This document shows, one piece after another, positions 6,844-16,113 of a stretch of DNA of 64,000 bases. This DNA comes from Patescibacteria group bacterium. GTDB taxonomy: Bacteria > Patescibacteriota > Microgenomatia > UBA1400 > MFAQ01. Position 1 is the first letter of the stretch. Every line of letters starts with the position of its first letter. Under the pieces are notes generated by a model. It searched no databases. It was not told the origin of the DNA and saw only the letters and a list, made by a program, of their open reading frames with translations. Position numbers and translations under genes: made by a program. The DNA lies in contig CALRDV010000002.1 of the NCBI GenBank assembly GCA_943355005.1, positions 131,826 to 195,825 on the forward strand, written 5' to 3'.

Positions 6844-6917
6844 CTTTGGGTTATATTAGTACAATTCCTCATTGATTGTACCAACTTGACCTTATGAGGG
6901 CAATTATTTTTCTTCTG

Positions 6918-7001
6918 CGGAGGAGGTGGGATTCGGACCCACGAGCGCCGGAGCGCACTCGCTTTCCAAGCGAGCGGAATAGACCACTATCCGACTCCTC
7001 C
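6918..7001 (-). tRNA. tRNA-Ser (anticodon GGA), type II with long variable arm
   Basis: The reverse complement is GGAGGAGTCGGATAGTGGTCTATTCCGCTCGCTTGGAAAGCGAGTGCGCTCCGGCGCTCGTGGGTCCGAATCCCACCTCCTCCG. It has anticodon loop TTGGAAA, a long variable arm and T-arm. Confidence 0.8.
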
Positions 7002-7042
7002 AAGTGAGCAAATGAAAAATTCCTTATTTTTCAGTTGCGAGC

Positions 7043-7066
7043 GCGGAGGTGTTGGATAACTACTGT
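7043..7066. repeat. Near-perfect 18-nt palindrome GGATAACTACTGTTATCC
   Basis: Seen directly in the sequence, downstream of tRNA-Ser(GGA). Its function is unknown; it could be a protein-binding site or part of a terminator. Confidence 0.4.
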
Positions 7067-7109
7067 TATCCGAACTCCTCACACAAACTAACACTCGAAC
7101 TTGTATATT

Positions 7110-7859
7110 TTACCTTAACTTGTCCAAGGCTGCGAGGAATTCACCGATTTCGTTAATGACCACAGTTCTCTCAGGCACCTCACCCTCCCTGTACACTGCC
7201 CAAGGACTAGGCATGTAGATTGTTCTCGACCCCAGTTCATCTCCTGGTTTGATATCCCCACTCAAACTATCTCCCACCACCAAACACCTTTCCGGCGCAA
7301 TTTCCATCGCATCCATTCCTCTTTTCCAATCAATCGATTTTTTGTGTCCATTCTCGTCCACAATCACCACAGTTTCGAAATAATTCCACAGACCAAGACT
7401 ATCTAGTTTGAAGTTCGTCCATTCCACATTCGCATGAGTCACTAGTACCATTTTGACTTTAGCTTTCTTCAAAACTTCCAGCGCCACCTTAGCCCCCTCC
7501 CGCATTCTAGGAACAATAGAGTAAATTCTCATTAACATATCTAAATTTTCCACAATCTCAGATTCACTTCCTTCGAATTCCTTTGCCAACTTCTCCACAA
7601 CTACCGCCCATCTTTTGGGGTTTACCCCCATCTTTTTATGTTCCTCATCATTTATGGGTTGTAATGCTCCCATAATTCTATCCTCTCCTACCCCAATCTT
7701 CTCAGCCACTTCCTCGGCATATTCCTGCATGCACTGAATGAATATTTCACTTGTGTAAATCAAGGTATCATCCAAATCGAAAAATACACCATCAACACCT
7801 AATCTTTTAAGTTTTTCTCCCACCGCGTCACAAACAGGATCGTTTTCCAGTTTAAACAT
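7110..7859 (-). CDS. HAD superfamily hydrolase
   Basis: N-terminal FFDLDDTLIY (HAD motif I) and downstream Asp-containing motifs (VVGDSLSGDI). Confidence 0.7.
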   Translation of the reverse strand: MFKLENDPVCDAVGEKLKRLGVDGVFFDLDDTLIYTSEIFIQCMQEYAEEVAEKIGVGEDRIMGALQPINDEEHKKMGVNPKRWAVVVEKLAKEFEGSESEIVENLDMLMRIYSIVPRMREGAKVALEVLKKAKVKMVLVTHANVEWTNFKLDSLGLWNYFETVVIVDENGHKKSIDWKRGMDAMEIAPERCLVVGDSLSGDIKPGDELGSRTIYMPSPWAVYREGEVPERTVVINEIGEFLAALDKLR

Positions 7860-7897
7860 GCCATATTCTACACCCAGAAACTAAAGAAAATTAATTG

Positions 7898-8060
7898 TGT
7901 ACCCGGTGCGATTCGAACGCACAACCTCGACCTGAGGGGTCTGAGATATTTTTAGAATTATCAATATCTCCCTTGAGGAGATATTGGTAATTAATTTGCA
8001 AAAATATCGAAGAATGCCGGAACCGATCTCGTAACGAGCTCGGTGAGGCGGGGGTGAAGG
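7898..8060 (-). pseudogene. tRNA-Arg-like 3' fragment fused to a degenerate copy of the hairpin repeat element (pseudo-tRNA / chimeric element)
   Basis: The ~31 nt GGTTGTGCGTTCGAATCGCACCGGGTACAC, equal to the T-arm plus 3' acceptor strand of the adjacent tRNA-Arg(CCG), is present. Upstream of it no D-arm or normal anticodon arm can be folded. Instead there is an 8-bp palindrome (ATATCTCC CTTGA GGAGATAT) and a hairpin, CCGAGCTCG-TTA-CGAGATCGG, homologous to the hairpin of the elements at 10489-10854. Confidence 0.45.
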
Positions 8061-8106
8061 TAAAGACGAAGTCTTTAATCCTGAACACAACTAAAAAAAC
8101 TATTTG

Positions 8107-8180
8107 TGTACCCGGTGCGATTCGAACGCACAACCACTTCCTTCGGAGGGAAGTACTCTATCCAGTTGAGCTACGGATAC
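8107..8180 (-). tRNA. tRNA-Arg (anticodon CCG)
   Basis: The reverse complement is GTATCCGTAGCTCAACTGGATAGAGTACTTCCCTCCGAAGGAAGTGGTTGTGCGTTCGAATCGCACCGGGTACA, with anticodon loop CTCCGAA. Confidence 0.8.
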
Positions 8181-8194
8181 ATACAGGTATTATC

Positions 8195-8524
8195 TCACTC
8201 CCCCTTTTTATTCCACACCCTTTTATTATTTATTTCCTCTTTCTCCCGGAACGCCTTCTCAGCATCTATGTTTAAATGGTTAGCCAAATCAATCACATAG
8301 CTAAATACATCAGCCCATTCATGATCTAACTCCATCTTCTCCGAATTATCATCAGTATGCATTTTGGTATATTGTCTCGCAGCTTTAGCGAGCTCTCCAA
8401 CTTCTTCAGAAAGATACATAAACAGTTCAGGGACCGTTGTGTCAGTAAAGTCTCTCTCAATCACCATCTCATTTATATACTCCTGATAATCTCCCAAAGA
8501 CGCTTTATCTTTAATTTTCTTCAT
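8195..8524 (-). CDS. MazG-like nucleotide pyrophosphohydrolase domain protein
   Basis: 109 aa with the EEVGELAKAARQY ... E..DV pattern of the all-alpha NTP-PPase (MazG) fold. Confidence 0.6.
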   Translation of the reverse strand: MKKIKDKASLGDYQEYINEMVIERDFTDTTVPELFMYLSEEVGELAKAARQYTKMHTDDNSEKMELDHEWADVFSYVIDLANHLNIDAEKAFREKEEINNKRVWNKKGE

Positions 8525-8568
8525 ACATCAAAAATTATTATATTTAGCCGGGTCTATCCACCGGTGGG

Positions 8569-8650
8569 CGGAGGATACAGGAGTCGAACCTGTTAGCCCA
8601 AAAGGGCATTGGTTTTCGAAACCAACGCATTACCGTCCTGCCCATCCTCC
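8569..8650 (-). tRNA. tRNA-Ser (anticodon CGA), type II
   Basis: The reverse complement is GGAGGATGGGCAGGACGGTAATGCGTTGGTTTCGAAAACCAATGCCCTTTTGGGCTAACAGGTTCGACTCCTGTATCCTCCG, with anticodon loop TTCGAAA and a long variable arm. Confidence 0.8.
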
Positions 8651-8693
8651 ATCGACTCGCCGTAGCTTTAGCAGAGGCGGTCATCGACATTTG

Positions 8694-8768
8694 TGAGCCC
8701 GGTGCGACTCGAACGCACGACCTCCTCCTTCGCAGGGAGGCGCTCTAATCCAACTGAGCTACGGACTC
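8694..8768 (-). tRNA. tRNA-Arg (anticodon GCG as read; could be ACG-type isoacceptor)
   Basis: The reverse complement is GAGTCCGTAGCTCAGTTGGATTAGAGCGCCTCCCTGCGAAGGAGGAGGTCGTGCGTTCGAGTCGCACCGGGCTCA, with anticodon loop CTGCGAA. Confidence 0.75.
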
Positions 8769-8806
8769 ATACGAGCTCTATTTTATCATCCTACGGGTCT
8801 TTCTCC

Positions 8807-9307
8807 TCATTCCAAGGGCATCTTCTCTCCCGCCCATTTCAAAGCTCTGTCTACCCAGGTCACAGCCGGCTCCTGGTATATCACCTTTTCTAACATCAAA
8901 TTCTTAATTTCATCCTCCTTTTTAGGATCAATTACCACCACCAAATGCCATGGAACGATAGATAGATTTATCCTCATGAGCCTAGTACCCCACTTAGTCT
9001 CAAACCAAAAATTAGTCATCTCTTCATACCTGTAAGTCTTCTCTGTCGATTTTAATCCCCAAGAAGTCAAAGCTGTTTTTATCATCTTCGGTTCAGTCTT
9101 GGCCATGGCCCAAAGCATGAATACAAGCGCCCAAATAACCACTACGGGCATCAGACCCTCAATAAAGTACATAATTATAGACACGAGGAAAGCAATCACG
9201 ATTACGGAACTGTAAAATTCTTTCGTCCAAACTTTATGAGGCCTATCATATGCCTCAAATTCCAAAAGTTCTTTTTCACTGAAATCTAAAGTGTCGGTTT
9301 TAGCCAC
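8807..9307 (-). CDS. Hypothetical membrane protein
   Basis: 166 aa with two central hydrophobic helices (VIVIAFLVSIIMYFIEGLMPVVVIWALVFMLWAM). Confidence 0.4.
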   Translation of the reverse strand: MAKTDTLDFSEKELLEFEAYDRPHKVWTKEFYSSVIVIAFLVSIIMYFIEGLMPVVVIWALVFMLWAMAKTEPKMIKTALTSWGLKSTEKTYRYEEMTNFWFETKWGTRLMRINLSIVPWHLVVVIDPKKEDEIKNLMLEKVIYQEPAVTWVDRALKWAGEKMPLE

Positions 9308-9329
9308 ATTTCATCTTAGCATAAGGCTC

Positions 9330-10085
9330 TCAAAGTAACTTAAATGAAAACTGTGCATCAGATATCACAGATTCGTTGTCCGGCCAAGTTACCATTGGAC
9401 CCGATGCAGTAGCCGCGTAACCATAACCTTTATTGACCGTAATTAAACTTCTACGCCTCATGTCGACCCCACCTACCACATAGTTTCCACCTATCAAATA
9501 ATAAGGTTGGCCTTTTAAGTAAAACAAAGAATCATTTTCAAATACAAAATCAGGAAAATCTTTTGATGTTTTATCTTTAATACTTTTAATTTGATCTGAC
9601 AAAGAACTCTCCTCAACGTTGCGTTTTTCCACAGTTAAGATTGTCGCATAATTAATATTTCCAATTGTTTTTGTAGTTGGATTCAGAAATATCACGATGG
9701 CTCCTGTTTTACCGGTTTCATCTAGCTGCCACCCTGACGGAGGAGTAATTTGAAAACCCTCTTTTTCATTTTTATAAATTCCTCCCCCAATTACACCACT
9801 TTCAGTTGATTGTGAATTGTTTAAGGTGACTACTTGGTTCTTGTTAGTACTAGTCTTTGTAGGCATCGTAATCTCTAGGTCAGGAGCCTCACCCGTCCCT
9901 CTTAGCATAACAATAATAATTAACAACACAACAGGACCAATCCCTAAATATACCAACCATCTCCATGGAATCTTTTTGGAAGGCACCTTTTCAGTTTCCG
10001 TATTCTTCTCTACAAATACCGGAATATCCACTAATACTTGCTGATTTTTTTCACCCTCTTTCTGAATTATATTTTCGAGCTCCAT
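9330..10085 (-). CDS. Hypothetical membrane-anchored protein
   Basis: 251 aa with an N-terminal TM helix (WRWLVYLGIGPVVLLIIIVML), then a Thr-rich linker and a globular domain. No motif recognised. Confidence 0.4.
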   Translation of the reverse strand: MELENIIQKEGEKNQQVLVDIPVFVEKNTETEKVPSKKIPWRWLVYLGIGPVVLLIIIVMLRGTGEAPDLEITMPTKTSTNKNQVVTLNNSQSTESGVIGGGIYKNEKEGFQITPPSGWQLDETGKTGAIVIFLNPTTKTIGNINYATILTVEKRNVEESSLSDQIKSIKDKTSKDFPDFVFENDSLFYLKGQPYYLIGGNYVVGGVDMRRRSLITVNKGYGYAATASGPMVTWPDNESVISDAQFSFKLL

Positions 10086-10127
10086 AACTTCAGTTTAAAC
10101 CATCTGGGCGGACCTGTCCGCCGGTAG

Positions 10128-10212
10128 GCGGAGGGGGCGGGATTCGAACCCGCGGTATCTTGCGATACGGAGGTTTAGTAAACCTCTGCACTCGACCACT
10201 ATGCGACCCCTC
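10128..10212 (-). tRNA. Type II (long variable arm) tRNA with atypical anticodon loop, reading ACU with a canonical 5-bp stem. Identity uncertain: Ser/Leu-like, or a pseudogene.
   Basis: The reverse complement is GGAGGGGTCGCATAGTGGTCGAGTGCAGAGGTTTACTAAACCTCCGTATCGCAAGATACCGCGGGTTCGAATCCCGCCCCCTCCG. Acceptor, D-arm, long variable arm and T-arm are good. The anticodon stem GAGGT/ACCTC encloses loop TTACTAA. Confidence 0.55.
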
Positions 10213-10217
10213 CACGG

Positions 10218-10299
10218 GCGGAGAGTACAGGGGTCGAACCTGTTAGGGCTTACGCCCATTAGTTTTCAAGACTAACGCATTACCGTCCTGCCCACTCTC
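10218..10299 (-). tRNA. tRNA-Ser (anticodon TGA), type II
   Basis: The reverse complement is GGAGAGTGGGCAGGACGGTAATGCGTTAGTCTTGAAAACTAATGGGCGTAAGCCCTAACAGGTTCGACCCCTGTACTCTCCG, with anticodon loop CTTGAAA. Confidence 0.8.
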
Positions 10300-10359
10300 C
10301 GTGTGTGCTTATTTTACCATTCCAAGTGCCTCTACTGGTAAAATAACTCTTGATCGTGA

Positions 10360-10441
10360 TGGAGGCGTCCGATAGTGGTTATTCGAGCGGGTTGCTAACC
10401 CGCGGCCCAAAAGGCCTCGTGGGTTCGAATCCCACCGCCTC
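10360..10441 (+). tRNA. tRNA-Ser (anticodon GCT), type II
   Basis: GGAGGCGTCCGATAGTGGTTATTCGAGCGGGTTGCTAACCCGCGGCCCAAAAGGCCTCGTGGGTTCGAATCCCACCGCCTCCG, with anticodon loop TTGCTAA. Confidence 0.8.
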
Positions 10442-10488
10442 CGCAAATTAAGTCTATTCGCCTTGCGCGAGTAGACTTAAATTTCGTT

Positions 10489-10592
10489 CGTGGGATTCGA
10501 ACAAGCCGGAACTAGTTTCGTAACGAACCTAGTGAGGCAGGTCTTGAGGCACCGAAGGTGACCGAAAGCGAATCCTTCTCCCACCGCCTCCG
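10489..10592 (+). repeat. tRNA-derived structured element, copy A (104 nt; possible small ncRNA)
   Basis: It starts with GTGGGATTCGAAC, the reverse complement of a T-arm. It ends with GCGAATCCTTCTCCCACCGCCTCCGC, whose last 14 nt are identical to the 3' end of tRNA-Ser(GCT), i.e. T-stem 3' strand + acceptor 3' strand + discriminator. It has an internal hairpin CTAG-T-TTCG-TAA-CGAA-C-CTAG and a duplicated heptamer TGAGGCA. It is followed by a strong bidirectional terminator. Confidence 0.6.
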
Positions 10593-10593
10593 C

Positions 10594-10637
10594 TAAAAAT
10601 AAATGTCCTCGCTTGTCGGGGACATTTATTTTTACCT
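10594..10637. terminator. Bidirectional rho-independent terminator
   Basis: A 14-bp perfect stem, AAAAATAAATGTCC / GGACATTTATTTTT, flanked by A-run and T-run. Confidence 0.7.
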
Positions 10638-10639
10638 TA

Positions 10640-10734
10640 AGTGGGATTCGAGTGACGGAGGCAAGCTCGTAACGATCTTGCCGAGTCCGGTACGAGCAAA
10701 ACTTCAGCAGAAGTTTATGCGAGAAAATCCCACC
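10640..10734 (+). repeat. tRNA-derived structured element, divergent copy C (~95 nt)
   Basis: It starts GTGGGATTCGAG and ends GCGAGAAAATCCCACCG followed by T7. It contains the conserved hairpin with compensatory substitutions (GGCAAG-C-TCG-TAA-CGA-T-CTTGCC) and a second 7-bp hairpin (AAACTTC AGCA GAAGTTT). Confidence 0.5.
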
Positions 10735-10750
10735 GATTTTTTTATTGCCA

Positions 10751-10854
10751 TGTGGGATTCGAACGAGTCGGAAGCAGTTTTGTAACAAACCTGCTGAGAC
10801 AGGTCCTGAGACACAGCAGGTGACCGAAGGCGAATCCTTCCCCCACCGCCTCCG
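10751..10854 (+). repeat. tRNA-derived structured element, copy B (104 nt)
   Basis: It is collinear with copy A at ~85% identity. The hairpin stems show compensatory changes (GCAG-T-TTTG-TAA-CAAA-C-CTGC). The duplicated heptamer is TGAGACA in both repeats, a concerted G-to-A change relative to copy A. The 3' end, CCCACCGCCTCCGC, is identical. Confidence 0.6.
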
Positions 10855-10915
10855 CAATAGAAAATTCTCGCGACACGTCCTTGCCTATTCTTTTTTTATT
10901 TGAGAAGATAAGTTA

Positions 10916-15694: not shown

Positions 15695-16109
15695 GGGGAC
15701 GACAGGATTCGATGGGATAGTACGTTTACAGTTGCAAGCCTCCTTTGGTAATAGGAGTCAAAAAGACCAAAAAATACTTGTCAATAAAGAAGACAAAATA
15801 CTTGGTTTCATCTCTAGTGGAGTTAAATCCCTTTTTGGTGAAGTCAAATCTTCCGCTCCCGTTTACGCTTTTGCCTAAATAGTAGCTTTGAAGACGTCTT
15901 GAGAGCCAGCGGATCCCGGGCTTCTCACAAGGCGAAAAAATACCGGATTGAATGCTTCAGGTTTGATTTAGGCCTGAGGACTAACTTTTCTAAATCGACC
16001 ATAAGGTGTTCTTGTTTGCCTGAAGCTTTATGGAAAATCGGCAAACTACGCTTGTAGACTCTGTAGGCTTAATATTTCAGACGAGAGTTCAATTCTCTCC
16101 GTCTCCACA
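15695..16109 (+). ncRNA. ssrA: tmRNA (SsrA), ~413 nt
   Basis: The 5' end GGGGACGACAGGATTCGATGGGA pairs with the 3' end CGTCTCC-A-CA to form a tRNA-like acceptor stem. The 3' T-arm is GAGAGTTCAATTCTCTC. The internal tag reading frame ends ...SSAPVYAFA followed by TAA TAG. It lies immediately downstream of smpB and is followed by a terminator hairpin. Confidence 0.8.
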
Positions 16110-16113
16110 TAAA

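Follow-up and report, generated by a model that had tools for sequence, protein, structure and literature searches.

Positions 7895-8105 of the window (the whole 64,000-nucleotide stretch of DNA analyzed here) are probably one unit, about 210 bp long, of a tRNA-linked, lineage-specific repeat inserted right after the 3' end of tRNA-Arg(CCG), and the apparent pseudo-tRNA at its far end would be the terminal direct repeat of this unit. The initial annotation had described the locus as a chimeric pseudo-tRNA, with a duplicated tRNA-Arg 3' end fused to a degenerate hairpin. We abandon the reading as a chimeric or decayed tRNA; the insert is a canonical member of a repeat family of about 100 copies. 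That the hairpin unit belongs to a lineage-specific, multi-copy family linked to tRNA genes in Collierbacteria is likewise the reading we favor. The unit and its tRNA are composed as follows, with strands given relative to the window:

7895..7926, minus strand: the "pseudo-tRNA", probably the terminal direct repeat of the unit; a 32-nt exact copy from tRNA-Arg(CCG).
7927..7939, minus strand: junction TCGACCTGAGGGG, or CCCCUCAGGUCGA on the tRNA strand; according to the comparison of orthologous loci, it is what remains, after divergence, of the 3' strand of the anticodon stem and of the loop.
7940..8013, plus strand: long hairpin H, composed of UCU-GA-GAUAUUUUU, an apical 16-bp palindrome (7956-7992) and AAAAAUAUC-GA-AGA (inverted repeats I12 and I18).
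8016..8049, plus strand: module P2, the signature hairpin of the family, composed of GCC-G-GA-A, a 9-bp stem in which a U.C mismatch is conserved and which is capped by a UAA loop, and U-GA-GGC; 64.4 bits and E 4e-15 with model R2.
8053..8088, plus strand: hairpin P3x, GGU-GA-AGG (UAAAGAC GAA GUCUUUA) AU CCU-GA-ACAC, an inner stem-loop with GA on each side, according to single-sequence folds.
8089..8105, minus strand: spacer, A-rich on the plus strand, which on the tRNA strand reads CAAAUAGUUUUUUUAG, a U-run straight after tRNA-Arg(CCG); read directly from the sequence.
8106..8180, minus strand: intact tRNA-Arg(CCG), called by ARAGORN and scoring 62.8 bits with the Rfam tRNA model; the repeat unit begins right past its 3' end.

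The sequence GTTGTGCGTTCGAATCGCACCGGGTACA has exactly two occurrences on the minus strand, at 7898-7925 and 8107-8134, with 0.00 expected by chance. Aligning the two 3' copies, as the initial annotation had proposed, shows the identity extends over 32 nt (7895-7926 = 8104-8135), where approximately 31 nt had first been reported. Included in it are the variable loop, T-arm and acceptor 3' strand, together with the discriminator and 3 nt of trailer. The two copies enclose 177 nt of DNA. In this stretch ARAGORN called no tRNA, also with the intron search and lowered thresholds (-i -ps), returning only 8106-8180, and Rfam yielded no tRNA match at E<=10 within 7870-8105. Upstream, no 7-mer fully pairs with the acceptor 3' strand CGGGUAC, the best one pairing at 6/7 positions. 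Given the 7895-7926 copy is without a 5' acceptor strand, a D-arm and an anticodon arm, as had been recognized from the start for the last two, it is neither a tRNA nor part of an intron-containing tRNA.

The three hairpins of the unit, H, P2 and P3x, each present tandem GA/GA internal loops, with all GA on the plus strand of the window. Hairpin H has a fold z of -5.9 on this strand. Its apical palindrome, first described as 8 bp long, has arms of 16 nt (7956-7971 and 7977-7992) that are 94% complementary, and it is surrounded by a second inverted repeat (7940-7953 and 8000-8013). The TTA-loop hairpin element is indeed present on the plus strand (TTA/TAA loop, 8023-8043), yet it is not the degenerate copy it had been taken for, since it is the best one in the window; the element also does not end at 8060, as had been assumed, but extends to about 8088. 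The P2 module scores 64 bits on the plus strand versus about 12 bits on the tRNA strand, and the core of the unit is therefore a plus-strand core, antisense to tRNA-Arg. In the folds of this unit there is no arm complementary to the T-loop or T-stem and no closing helix, and hairpin H stands in that place. No promoter-like site was found on the plus strand upstream of this copy. We refer to this arrangement as X-type. All three hairpins recur in the consensus fold of eight X-type copies, where 31 of 49 pairs, among them pairs of H and P3x, have undergone compensatory changes.

Model R2 was built from 94 P2 copies, none of which comes from the window. Four P2 copies exist in the window, all on the plus strand (8012-8052, 10501-10541, 10650-10690 and 10763-10803), and the first of these obtains the highest score of the four with this independent model. 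All four adjoin the only two tRNAs of the window with copies of their 3' ends, tRNA-Arg(CCG) and tRNA-Ser(GCT), while six of the eight tRNAs in the window are without an element. When the four copies are compared, 7 of 12 pairs are changed on both sides.

Scanning one genome per species with a degenerate P2 pattern yielded 75 loci (L-numbers below designate such loci in other genomes), of which 73, with about 100 P2 copies in them, were confirmed by the covariance model. Nearly all are in metagenome-assembled genomes of Candidatus Collierbacteria, with a few in Woesebacteria or unplaced Patescibacteria, some of the records being evidently mistitled; the pattern had no match in viral contigs. 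Among 82 distinct copies, 91% of the cells pair, 227 cells present double-sided changes, distributed over 11 of 13 pairs, and one-sided changes are almost absent. A pyrimidine-pyrimidine mismatch in the P2 stem is conserved. The GA strand of the copies is the C-rich strand in 44 cases and the G-rich strand in 32, which is an enrichment relative to tRNAs; a replication-strand rule for GA orientation was rejected, since 44 versus 32 is not a rule.

The ordinary members of this family, which we call T-type, follow a tRNA on the same strand. Of 89 strict P2 matches, 53 are located 49-68 nt downstream of a same-strand tRNA, and in all 53 the core is on the tRNA strand. The tRNAs involved are of 13 or more isotypes: Lys, Glu, Leu, Tyr, Val, Arg, Asp, His, Trp, Thr, Ser, Gln and Gly. 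The order of elements is the tRNA, a near-perfect terminator-like hairpin, an anti-T arm, P2, P3, a copy of the tRNA 3' end and usually another hairpin, with a period of about 140-150 nt. The anti-T arm is the reverse complement of the T-loop and the T-stem 3' strand of the unit's own tRNA, and P3 is a second GA-flanked hairpin. As a rule, the repeat extends from the T-loop, at 18-19 nt before the tRNA end, to 0-4 nt beyond that end; in a few apparently young copies it covers the terminator hairpin as well. Among 54 distinct T-type units, the last 14 nt of the tRNA are copied exactly in 24 and with at most two mismatches in 34. Single-sequence folds present a three-way junction closed by P1, in which the anti-T arm pairs with the T copy (8-13 bp); P2 and P3 make up the other two branches, and the acceptor 3' strand protrudes as a tail. 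In the consensus fold of 26 units, compensatory changes occur at 16 of 19 pairs, with P2 and P3 covarying. In terms of their cores, 38 of the 54 units have their nearest relative at a different tRNA in a different genome, while their ends are specific to the local tRNA.

The initial annotation had proposed a search for further tRNA 3' duplications beside this hairpin element. The tRNA-Arg(CCG) copy is indeed not the only one: in the window, tRNA-Ser(GCT) also has 3'-end copies next to P2 modules. Each of the units in this array has a closing arm complementary to the T part, unlike the tRNA-Arg unit. The array is organized as follows:

10361-10444: tRNA-Ser(GCT), followed by units A, B and C.
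10490..10596, plus strand: unit A, T-type, with anti-T arm GUGGGAUUCGAAC, P2, P3, the tRNA-Ser 3'-end copy CCCACCGCCUCCGC and then a terminator hairpin.
10641..10733, plus strand: unit B, with closing helix GUGGGAUU/AAUCCCAC, P2 (60.8 bits), a long A/U-rich P3 and a U-run, without an acceptor copy; fold z -4.2.
10752..10858, plus strand: unit C, 82% identical to unit A, ending with a second copy of the tRNA-Ser(GCT) 3' end.

Tandem arrays of units are also found in L019, L050 and L060.

The comparison of orthologous sites shows how the tRNA-Arg unit varies among genomes. An antisense X-type unit beside tRNA-Arg(CCG) is present in four genomes, namely the window's own, L038, L070 and L019, the last of which has two tandem units and three fragments; the window is syntenic with L070 and L038, which would place it in or near Collierbacteria. 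In L037 and L077, tRNA-Arg(CCG) is followed within 15-17 nt by the start codon of the same HAD-hydrolase gene, with no insert, and with HAD identities of 51% and 67%, respectively. Given these empty sites have the same flanking gene, the tRNA-Arg unit is an insertion polymorphism. Filled and empty sites are not cleanly sorted by HAD similarity, hence gains are not separable from losses. None of the six loci examined has tRNA-Arg(CCG) and the hairpin core without the 3' fragment. A metagenome scan with the HAD protein returned two loci only, one of which is L077, an empty site, and the exact look-up of the MazG-like protein returned no match. The empty sites agree with the part of the initial annotation that proposed an insertion into a tRNA gene, or a recombination with it, that duplicated the tRNA 3' end. 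A reading as the scar of a gene-carrying island is not supported.

The fragments themselves are informative as to where the repeat began. In L038 and L070, the tRNA-Arg fragment still holds the 3' strand of the anticodon stem, GGAAGUGGUU, which indicates the repeat first began at or near the anticodon loop and that this part has diverged in the window. In L019, one of the fragments has an acceptor strand, CCGGGUACA, that differs from that of the adjoining tRNA, CUAGGUGCA; hence, at least sometimes, the fragment travels with the unit instead of being copied from the target. In all three of these loci the fragment has diverged from its tRNA. X-type units are also found in other settings. In L015, one is nested in the T-type unit that follows tRNA-Trp, taking the position of P3; in L066 and L074 they are located between two ORFs; and in L064 and L068 they form the terminus of an rplO-like ORF, which has the TAA of the P2 loop as its stop codon.

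Among known systems, the closest in design are the RtT elements, the 178-bp repeats of tyrT (RF00391; rttR). Although these tandem repeats of E. coli were described decades ago, they are not known to have an accepted function. In E. coli K-12, the tyrT locus presents four RtT units with scores of 133-137 bits: one is located in the interval from tyrT to tyrV, and the other three follow tyrV. The first of the four is annotated in the genome record as the small RNA RttR. The start of every unit, GGGGAAGGAU, is the complement of AUCCUUCCCC, and its end, AAUCCUUCCCCCACCACCA, equals the last 19 nt of tRNA-Tyr. All four contain hairpins with GA on either side, as in CUC-GA-GC-GCCA-GC-GA-GAG and in CGAAG-hairpin-CUGAG, the latter directly preceding the T copy. 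As is the case with the T-type units, RtT units are located on the same strand directly downstream of a tRNA, often in tandem; they end with a copy of the tRNA 3' end from the T-loop on (19 nt in E. coli); their fold is closed by a 5' arm that is the complement of this copy in its T-loop and T-stem part, leaving the acceptor 3' strand as a tail; and their internal hairpins have GA on both sides. The differences are that the P2 and P3 modules are not alike in sequence, that RtT is found at few tRNA isotypes whereas the Collierbacteria family is found at many, and that no CCA is encoded in the Collierbacteria units.

When Rfam 15 was run at the gathering threshold and at E<=10, RtT (RF00391) matched unit A with 24.4 bits, below its 45-bit threshold; this was the only non-trivial match, the rest being noise, and RtT had no match over 7870-8110. 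Given no significant sequence is shared, homology with RtT cannot be claimed. The tRNA-Arg unit follows its tRNA directly and ends with an exact 32-nt 3' copy, as RtT units do, yet it is without a closing helix, and its core runs opposite to the tRNA. In terms of design, the tRNA-Arg feature appears to be a novel, lineage-specific variant among tRNA-linked repeats of the RtT kind. We found no description of these Collierbacteria elements in the literature and nothing new on RtT function; in one recent paper that mentions RtT, the mode of action of rttR is called unknown.

Other systems are similar in some respects only. The att repeats of integrases (in islands, prophages and miniature integrase-less derivatives) also present an intact tRNA, an inserted segment and a displaced 3' copy, with a repeat that runs from a tRNA loop to the 3' end and with serial fragments in arrays. 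The units described here differ in having a gene-free insert of 140-210 bp, no nearby integrase, an arm complementary to the repeat, and one core that serves many tRNAs. REP/BIME/REPIN sequences, Rickettsia palindromic elements and MITEs are, like these units, short, non-coding and hairpin-forming, with many copies per genome in one lineage. They share with the units the nested copies (L015), the copies that enter the end of an ORF (L064, L068), the presence/absence polymorphism, the strictly Watson-Crick stem changes and the conserved stem mismatch, but not the tight, oriented coupling to tRNA 3' ends or the tRNA-specific ends. Neither generic terminal inverted repeats nor the usual short target-site duplication were seen in the units, and there was no transposase among the window ORFs tested. 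The GA hairpins resemble kink-turns, or tandem sheared G.A motifs, in that GA in both strands separates a short Watson-Crick helix from a second one, and in that the GA is consistently assigned to one strand; their bulge, however, is of 1 nt in P2 (GCC-G-GA...GA-GGC) and of 0-1 nt elsewhere, versus 3 nt in a standard kink-turn. Judged from the sequence, this resemblance may serve as a lead and nothing further. Hammerhead ribozymes, SRP RNA, 5S rRNA, group II domain V, attC and box C/D were also compared by eye and rejected, their conserved positions being unfitting.

The neighborhood of the tRNA-Arg unit encodes a HAD hydrolase, a MazG-like protein, DnaG, RpoD and ZnuABC, and the window, which contains a tmRNA as well, is a housekeeping region of the chromosome. 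A phage origin was rejected given this region, with its tmRNA, and the absence of matches in viral contigs. As noted in the initial annotation, no integrase is nearby: neither an integrase nor a transposase was found near the tRNA-Arg unit or among the window ORFs tested.

Taken as an inserted repeat, the locus would be explained by units that arise and turn over as DNA, through duplication or recombination. The duplicated segment would begin in a tRNA loop, ordinarily the T-loop and here the anticodon loop or its vicinity, and extend to the 3' end of the tRNA, so that an intact tRNA would persist in every case alongside a residual 3' fragment. Cores of hairpins would be exchanged among tRNA loci, and ordinary units would be co-transcribed with their tRNA. 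No enzyme linked to the units was identified, nor one that would copy part of the target tRNA both directly and inverted. As for the origin of the tRNA-specific complementary arm, a long target duplication, hairpin opening and quasi-palindrome template switching were considered, none of which is convincing. Reverse transcription of the mature tRNA was excluded as the source of the units, since the copies hold genomic trailer bases and no CCA.

The main competing explanation, which we consider rather unlikely but by some distance the strongest of the alternatives, is that the units are working RNA genes. According to it, RtT-like RNAs mimic the 3' end of their own tRNA by means of a T-stem-like helix and a free acceptor 3' strand, and would either act on a factor that recognizes tRNA 3' ends, by titrating or guiding it, or pair with the 5' acceptor strand of the tRNA. 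The window copy would then be a plus-strand transcript whose 5' part is complementary over 32-45 nt to the 3' half of tRNA-Arg(CCG), i.e., an antisense regulator. The architecture shared with E. coli RtT, with its unit annotated as RttR, argues for this, as do the GA/GA loops, which are on the transcribed strand in all of the 53 or more T-type units and in the five X-type copies located inside transcription units. The copy of the tRNA end is often identical while the flanking hairpin has diverged, with a sharp boundary at the tRNA end, and the hairpins that follow the units favor the same strand (G.U 49 versus 26). The wobble pairs of the element helices, however, tell otherwise: G.U versus A.C is 4 versus 7 in P2, 22 versus 36 in P1 and 9 versus 18 in P3, without strand bias, whereas the adjacent terminator hairpins at the same loci present 43 versus 1. 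The P2, P1 and P3 helices change only by Watson-Crick double substitutions, and the near-absence of G.U, together with the lack of strand bias, argues against selection on RNA. The X-type helices do have a weak G.U excess on the plus strand (25 versus 7, or 13 versus 5 with one copy per lineage), which would fit an RNA. Strand assignment by wobble pairs was thus discarded as a criterion for the element helices, for which it is uninformative or contradictory, although it is decisive for the terminators. Also against an RNA gene are the patchy distribution of the elements, as seen in the six element-free tRNAs of the window and in the empty orthologous sites, the fragments that have drifted from their tRNAs in L038, L070 and L019, and, for the window copy, the missing promoter-like site and closing helix. 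As its core is antisense to the tRNA transcript, and given these last two observations, the tRNA-Arg unit is most likely a passive insertion relic and not a working RNA.

An integration scar is improbable. It would suppose a tyrosine-integrase element that entered tRNA-Arg(CCG) at the anticodon loop, brought its own 3' half and was mostly deleted later, leaving attL and attR 209 bp apart. Integrases that target tRNA genes classically use segments from the anticodon loop or the T-loop through to the 3' end, and the direct repeat runs to the 3' end from approximately the anticodon stem/loop (L038, L070) or, in ordinary units, from the T-loop; the serial fragments of the L019 tandem arrays and the empty sites in relatives also fit. 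At the tRNA-Arg unit, however, the direct repeat bounds an insert with neither an integrase nor cargo, and the 177 nt between the repeats are a complete, conserved family member, with the same form in four genomes, instead of island debris. Moreover, the design recurs behind the 13 or more isotypes, each with its own tRNA sequence and with a complementary arm that is foreign to att sites, and the pattern is missing from the viral contigs. Given ordinary units carry their own tRNA 3' copy and a complementary arm, a design that is RtT-like and not att-like, the island reading is disfavored. Even less probable is a local tandem duplication of the tRNA trailer, by replication slippage or unequal crossover, with chance hairpins and no element family behind it. 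Tandem arrays do exist, as in units A to C, in L019, L050 and L060 and at E. coli tyrT, but doubling of the fragment and trailer predicts two trailers where the window has one, this trailer is a dispersed family member found in unrelated contexts, and the empty sites are without the whole trailer, not merely one copy of it. Finally, an intron-containing, split or permuted tRNA gene, with its 5' part hidden upstream or elsewhere in the genome, was rejected on the basis of ARAGORN, Rfam and acceptor pairing, and we give it practically no credence. The T-arm and acceptor 3' strand are complete and the minus-strand fold is a cloverleaf-like four-way junction, yet the acceptor 5' strand, D-arm and anticodon arm are missing, and both ARAGORN with the intron search and Rfam returned no such tRNA over the region. 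The fragment has also diverged from a workable tRNA in L019, L038 and L070, and its would-be arms are conserved hairpins of the family in reverse complement.

For the family as a whole, the evidence on RNA versus DNA is mixed, and the two readings are not mutually exclusive. The site polymorphism, the tandem arrays, the nested and in-ORF copies, the exchanged cores and the unbiased helices favor dynamics at the DNA level within this mixed picture. A broader conjecture, doubtful at present, is that RtT-type elements are a widespread unrecognized class, in which a small structured RNA shadows each tRNA, showing its T-stem and acceptor 3' strand together with protein-binding GA hairpins; in Collierbacteria, these would have spread to most tRNAs and given rise to derivatives that are free-standing or antisense, as at tRNA-Arg(CCG). 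An equally conjectural alternative is that the units are mobile DNA of a new kind, whose ends would be made by copying the 3' segment of the target tRNA, once direct and once inverted.

With these results, an RtT-like design is found in a distant, small-genome lineage, with dozens of copies behind many tRNAs, filled and empty sites, nested copies and arrays. The Collierbacteria units hence constitute a comparative data set on how such units form and on whether they act as RNA. The family also explains a class of partial tRNA 3' duplications in genomes of the Candidate Phyla Radiation (CPR), which could otherwise be annotated as pseudo-tRNAs or mistaken for the integration scars of islands.

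The window holds a full-length tmRNA and a set of five tRNA-Ser genes within 3.6 kb (6917-10444), one of which is called with the anticodon ACU and directly adjoins tRNA-Ser(UGA).

15695-16110, (+) strand: full-length tmRNA (Rfam, 111 bits)
10127-10213, (-) strand: tRNA-Ser, anticodon ACU (ARAGORN; Rfam tRNA, 55 bits)

The tmRNA has a predicted tag peptide ending in ...SSAPVYAFA, and its presence at full length confirms the window is part of a bacterial chromosome. Serine tRNAs with A34 are unusual among bacteria.

The GC skew of the + strand is strongly negative throughout positions 1-64000, with a mean of about -0.19 and no sign change, and the minus strand carries the majority of the window's genes. 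A similar strand disparity has been reported for a Microgenomates genome (PMC7143001). Considering all loci, the unit-carrying tRNAs present a count of 44 versus 32 for the C-rich strand, while the overall set of tRNAs in these loci presents 44 versus 93. Hence, the C-rich strand is relatively more common for unit-carrying tRNAs than for tRNAs in general, an excess that could be related either to a replication-strand preference or to a sampling effect.

Next to the tRNA-Arg fragment (i.e., the copy of the 3' part of tRNA-Arg(CCG) that ends the inserted unit), in loci L038 and L070 of other genomes, a 7-8-nt unit (AAGAACT / AAGAACTC) is repeated in tandem to form long arrays, which lie between the fragment and the HAD gene. 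Two degenerate copies of this unit are found at 7872-7893 of the window, in the orientation opposite to that of these arrays. The empty sites, i.e., tRNA-Arg(CCG) loci without an insert, do not contain these tandem units.

In L064 (2725-2760) and L068 (7692-7727), an rplO-like ORF extends into P2, the family's GA-flanked hairpin module, where the TAA of the P2 loop terminates it; the element therefore supplies the final codons and the stop codon. A short P2 variant, GCC-G-GA-G GUGC GACG GCAC C-GA-GGC, occurs in an ordinary tRNA-linked (T-type) unit at L015 1040-1135, which shows the conserved part of P2 is its GA-flanked base, the distal stem being replaceable.

In T-type units of L006, L031, L036, L042, L025 and L060, the tRNA-end copy itself holds a second, smaller hairpin insert (e.g., CCGCCACAGGCGGACAGGC), nested so that it separates the T-stem part of the copy from the acceptor part. 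A similar hairpin is borne by a 66-nt insert in L076 (about 2130-2260); on either side of this insert, 20 nt from the 5' end of tRNA-Arg(GCG) are duplicated. Given these nested inserts and the L076 insert, tRNA ends in these genomes attract small inserts of at least two kinds.
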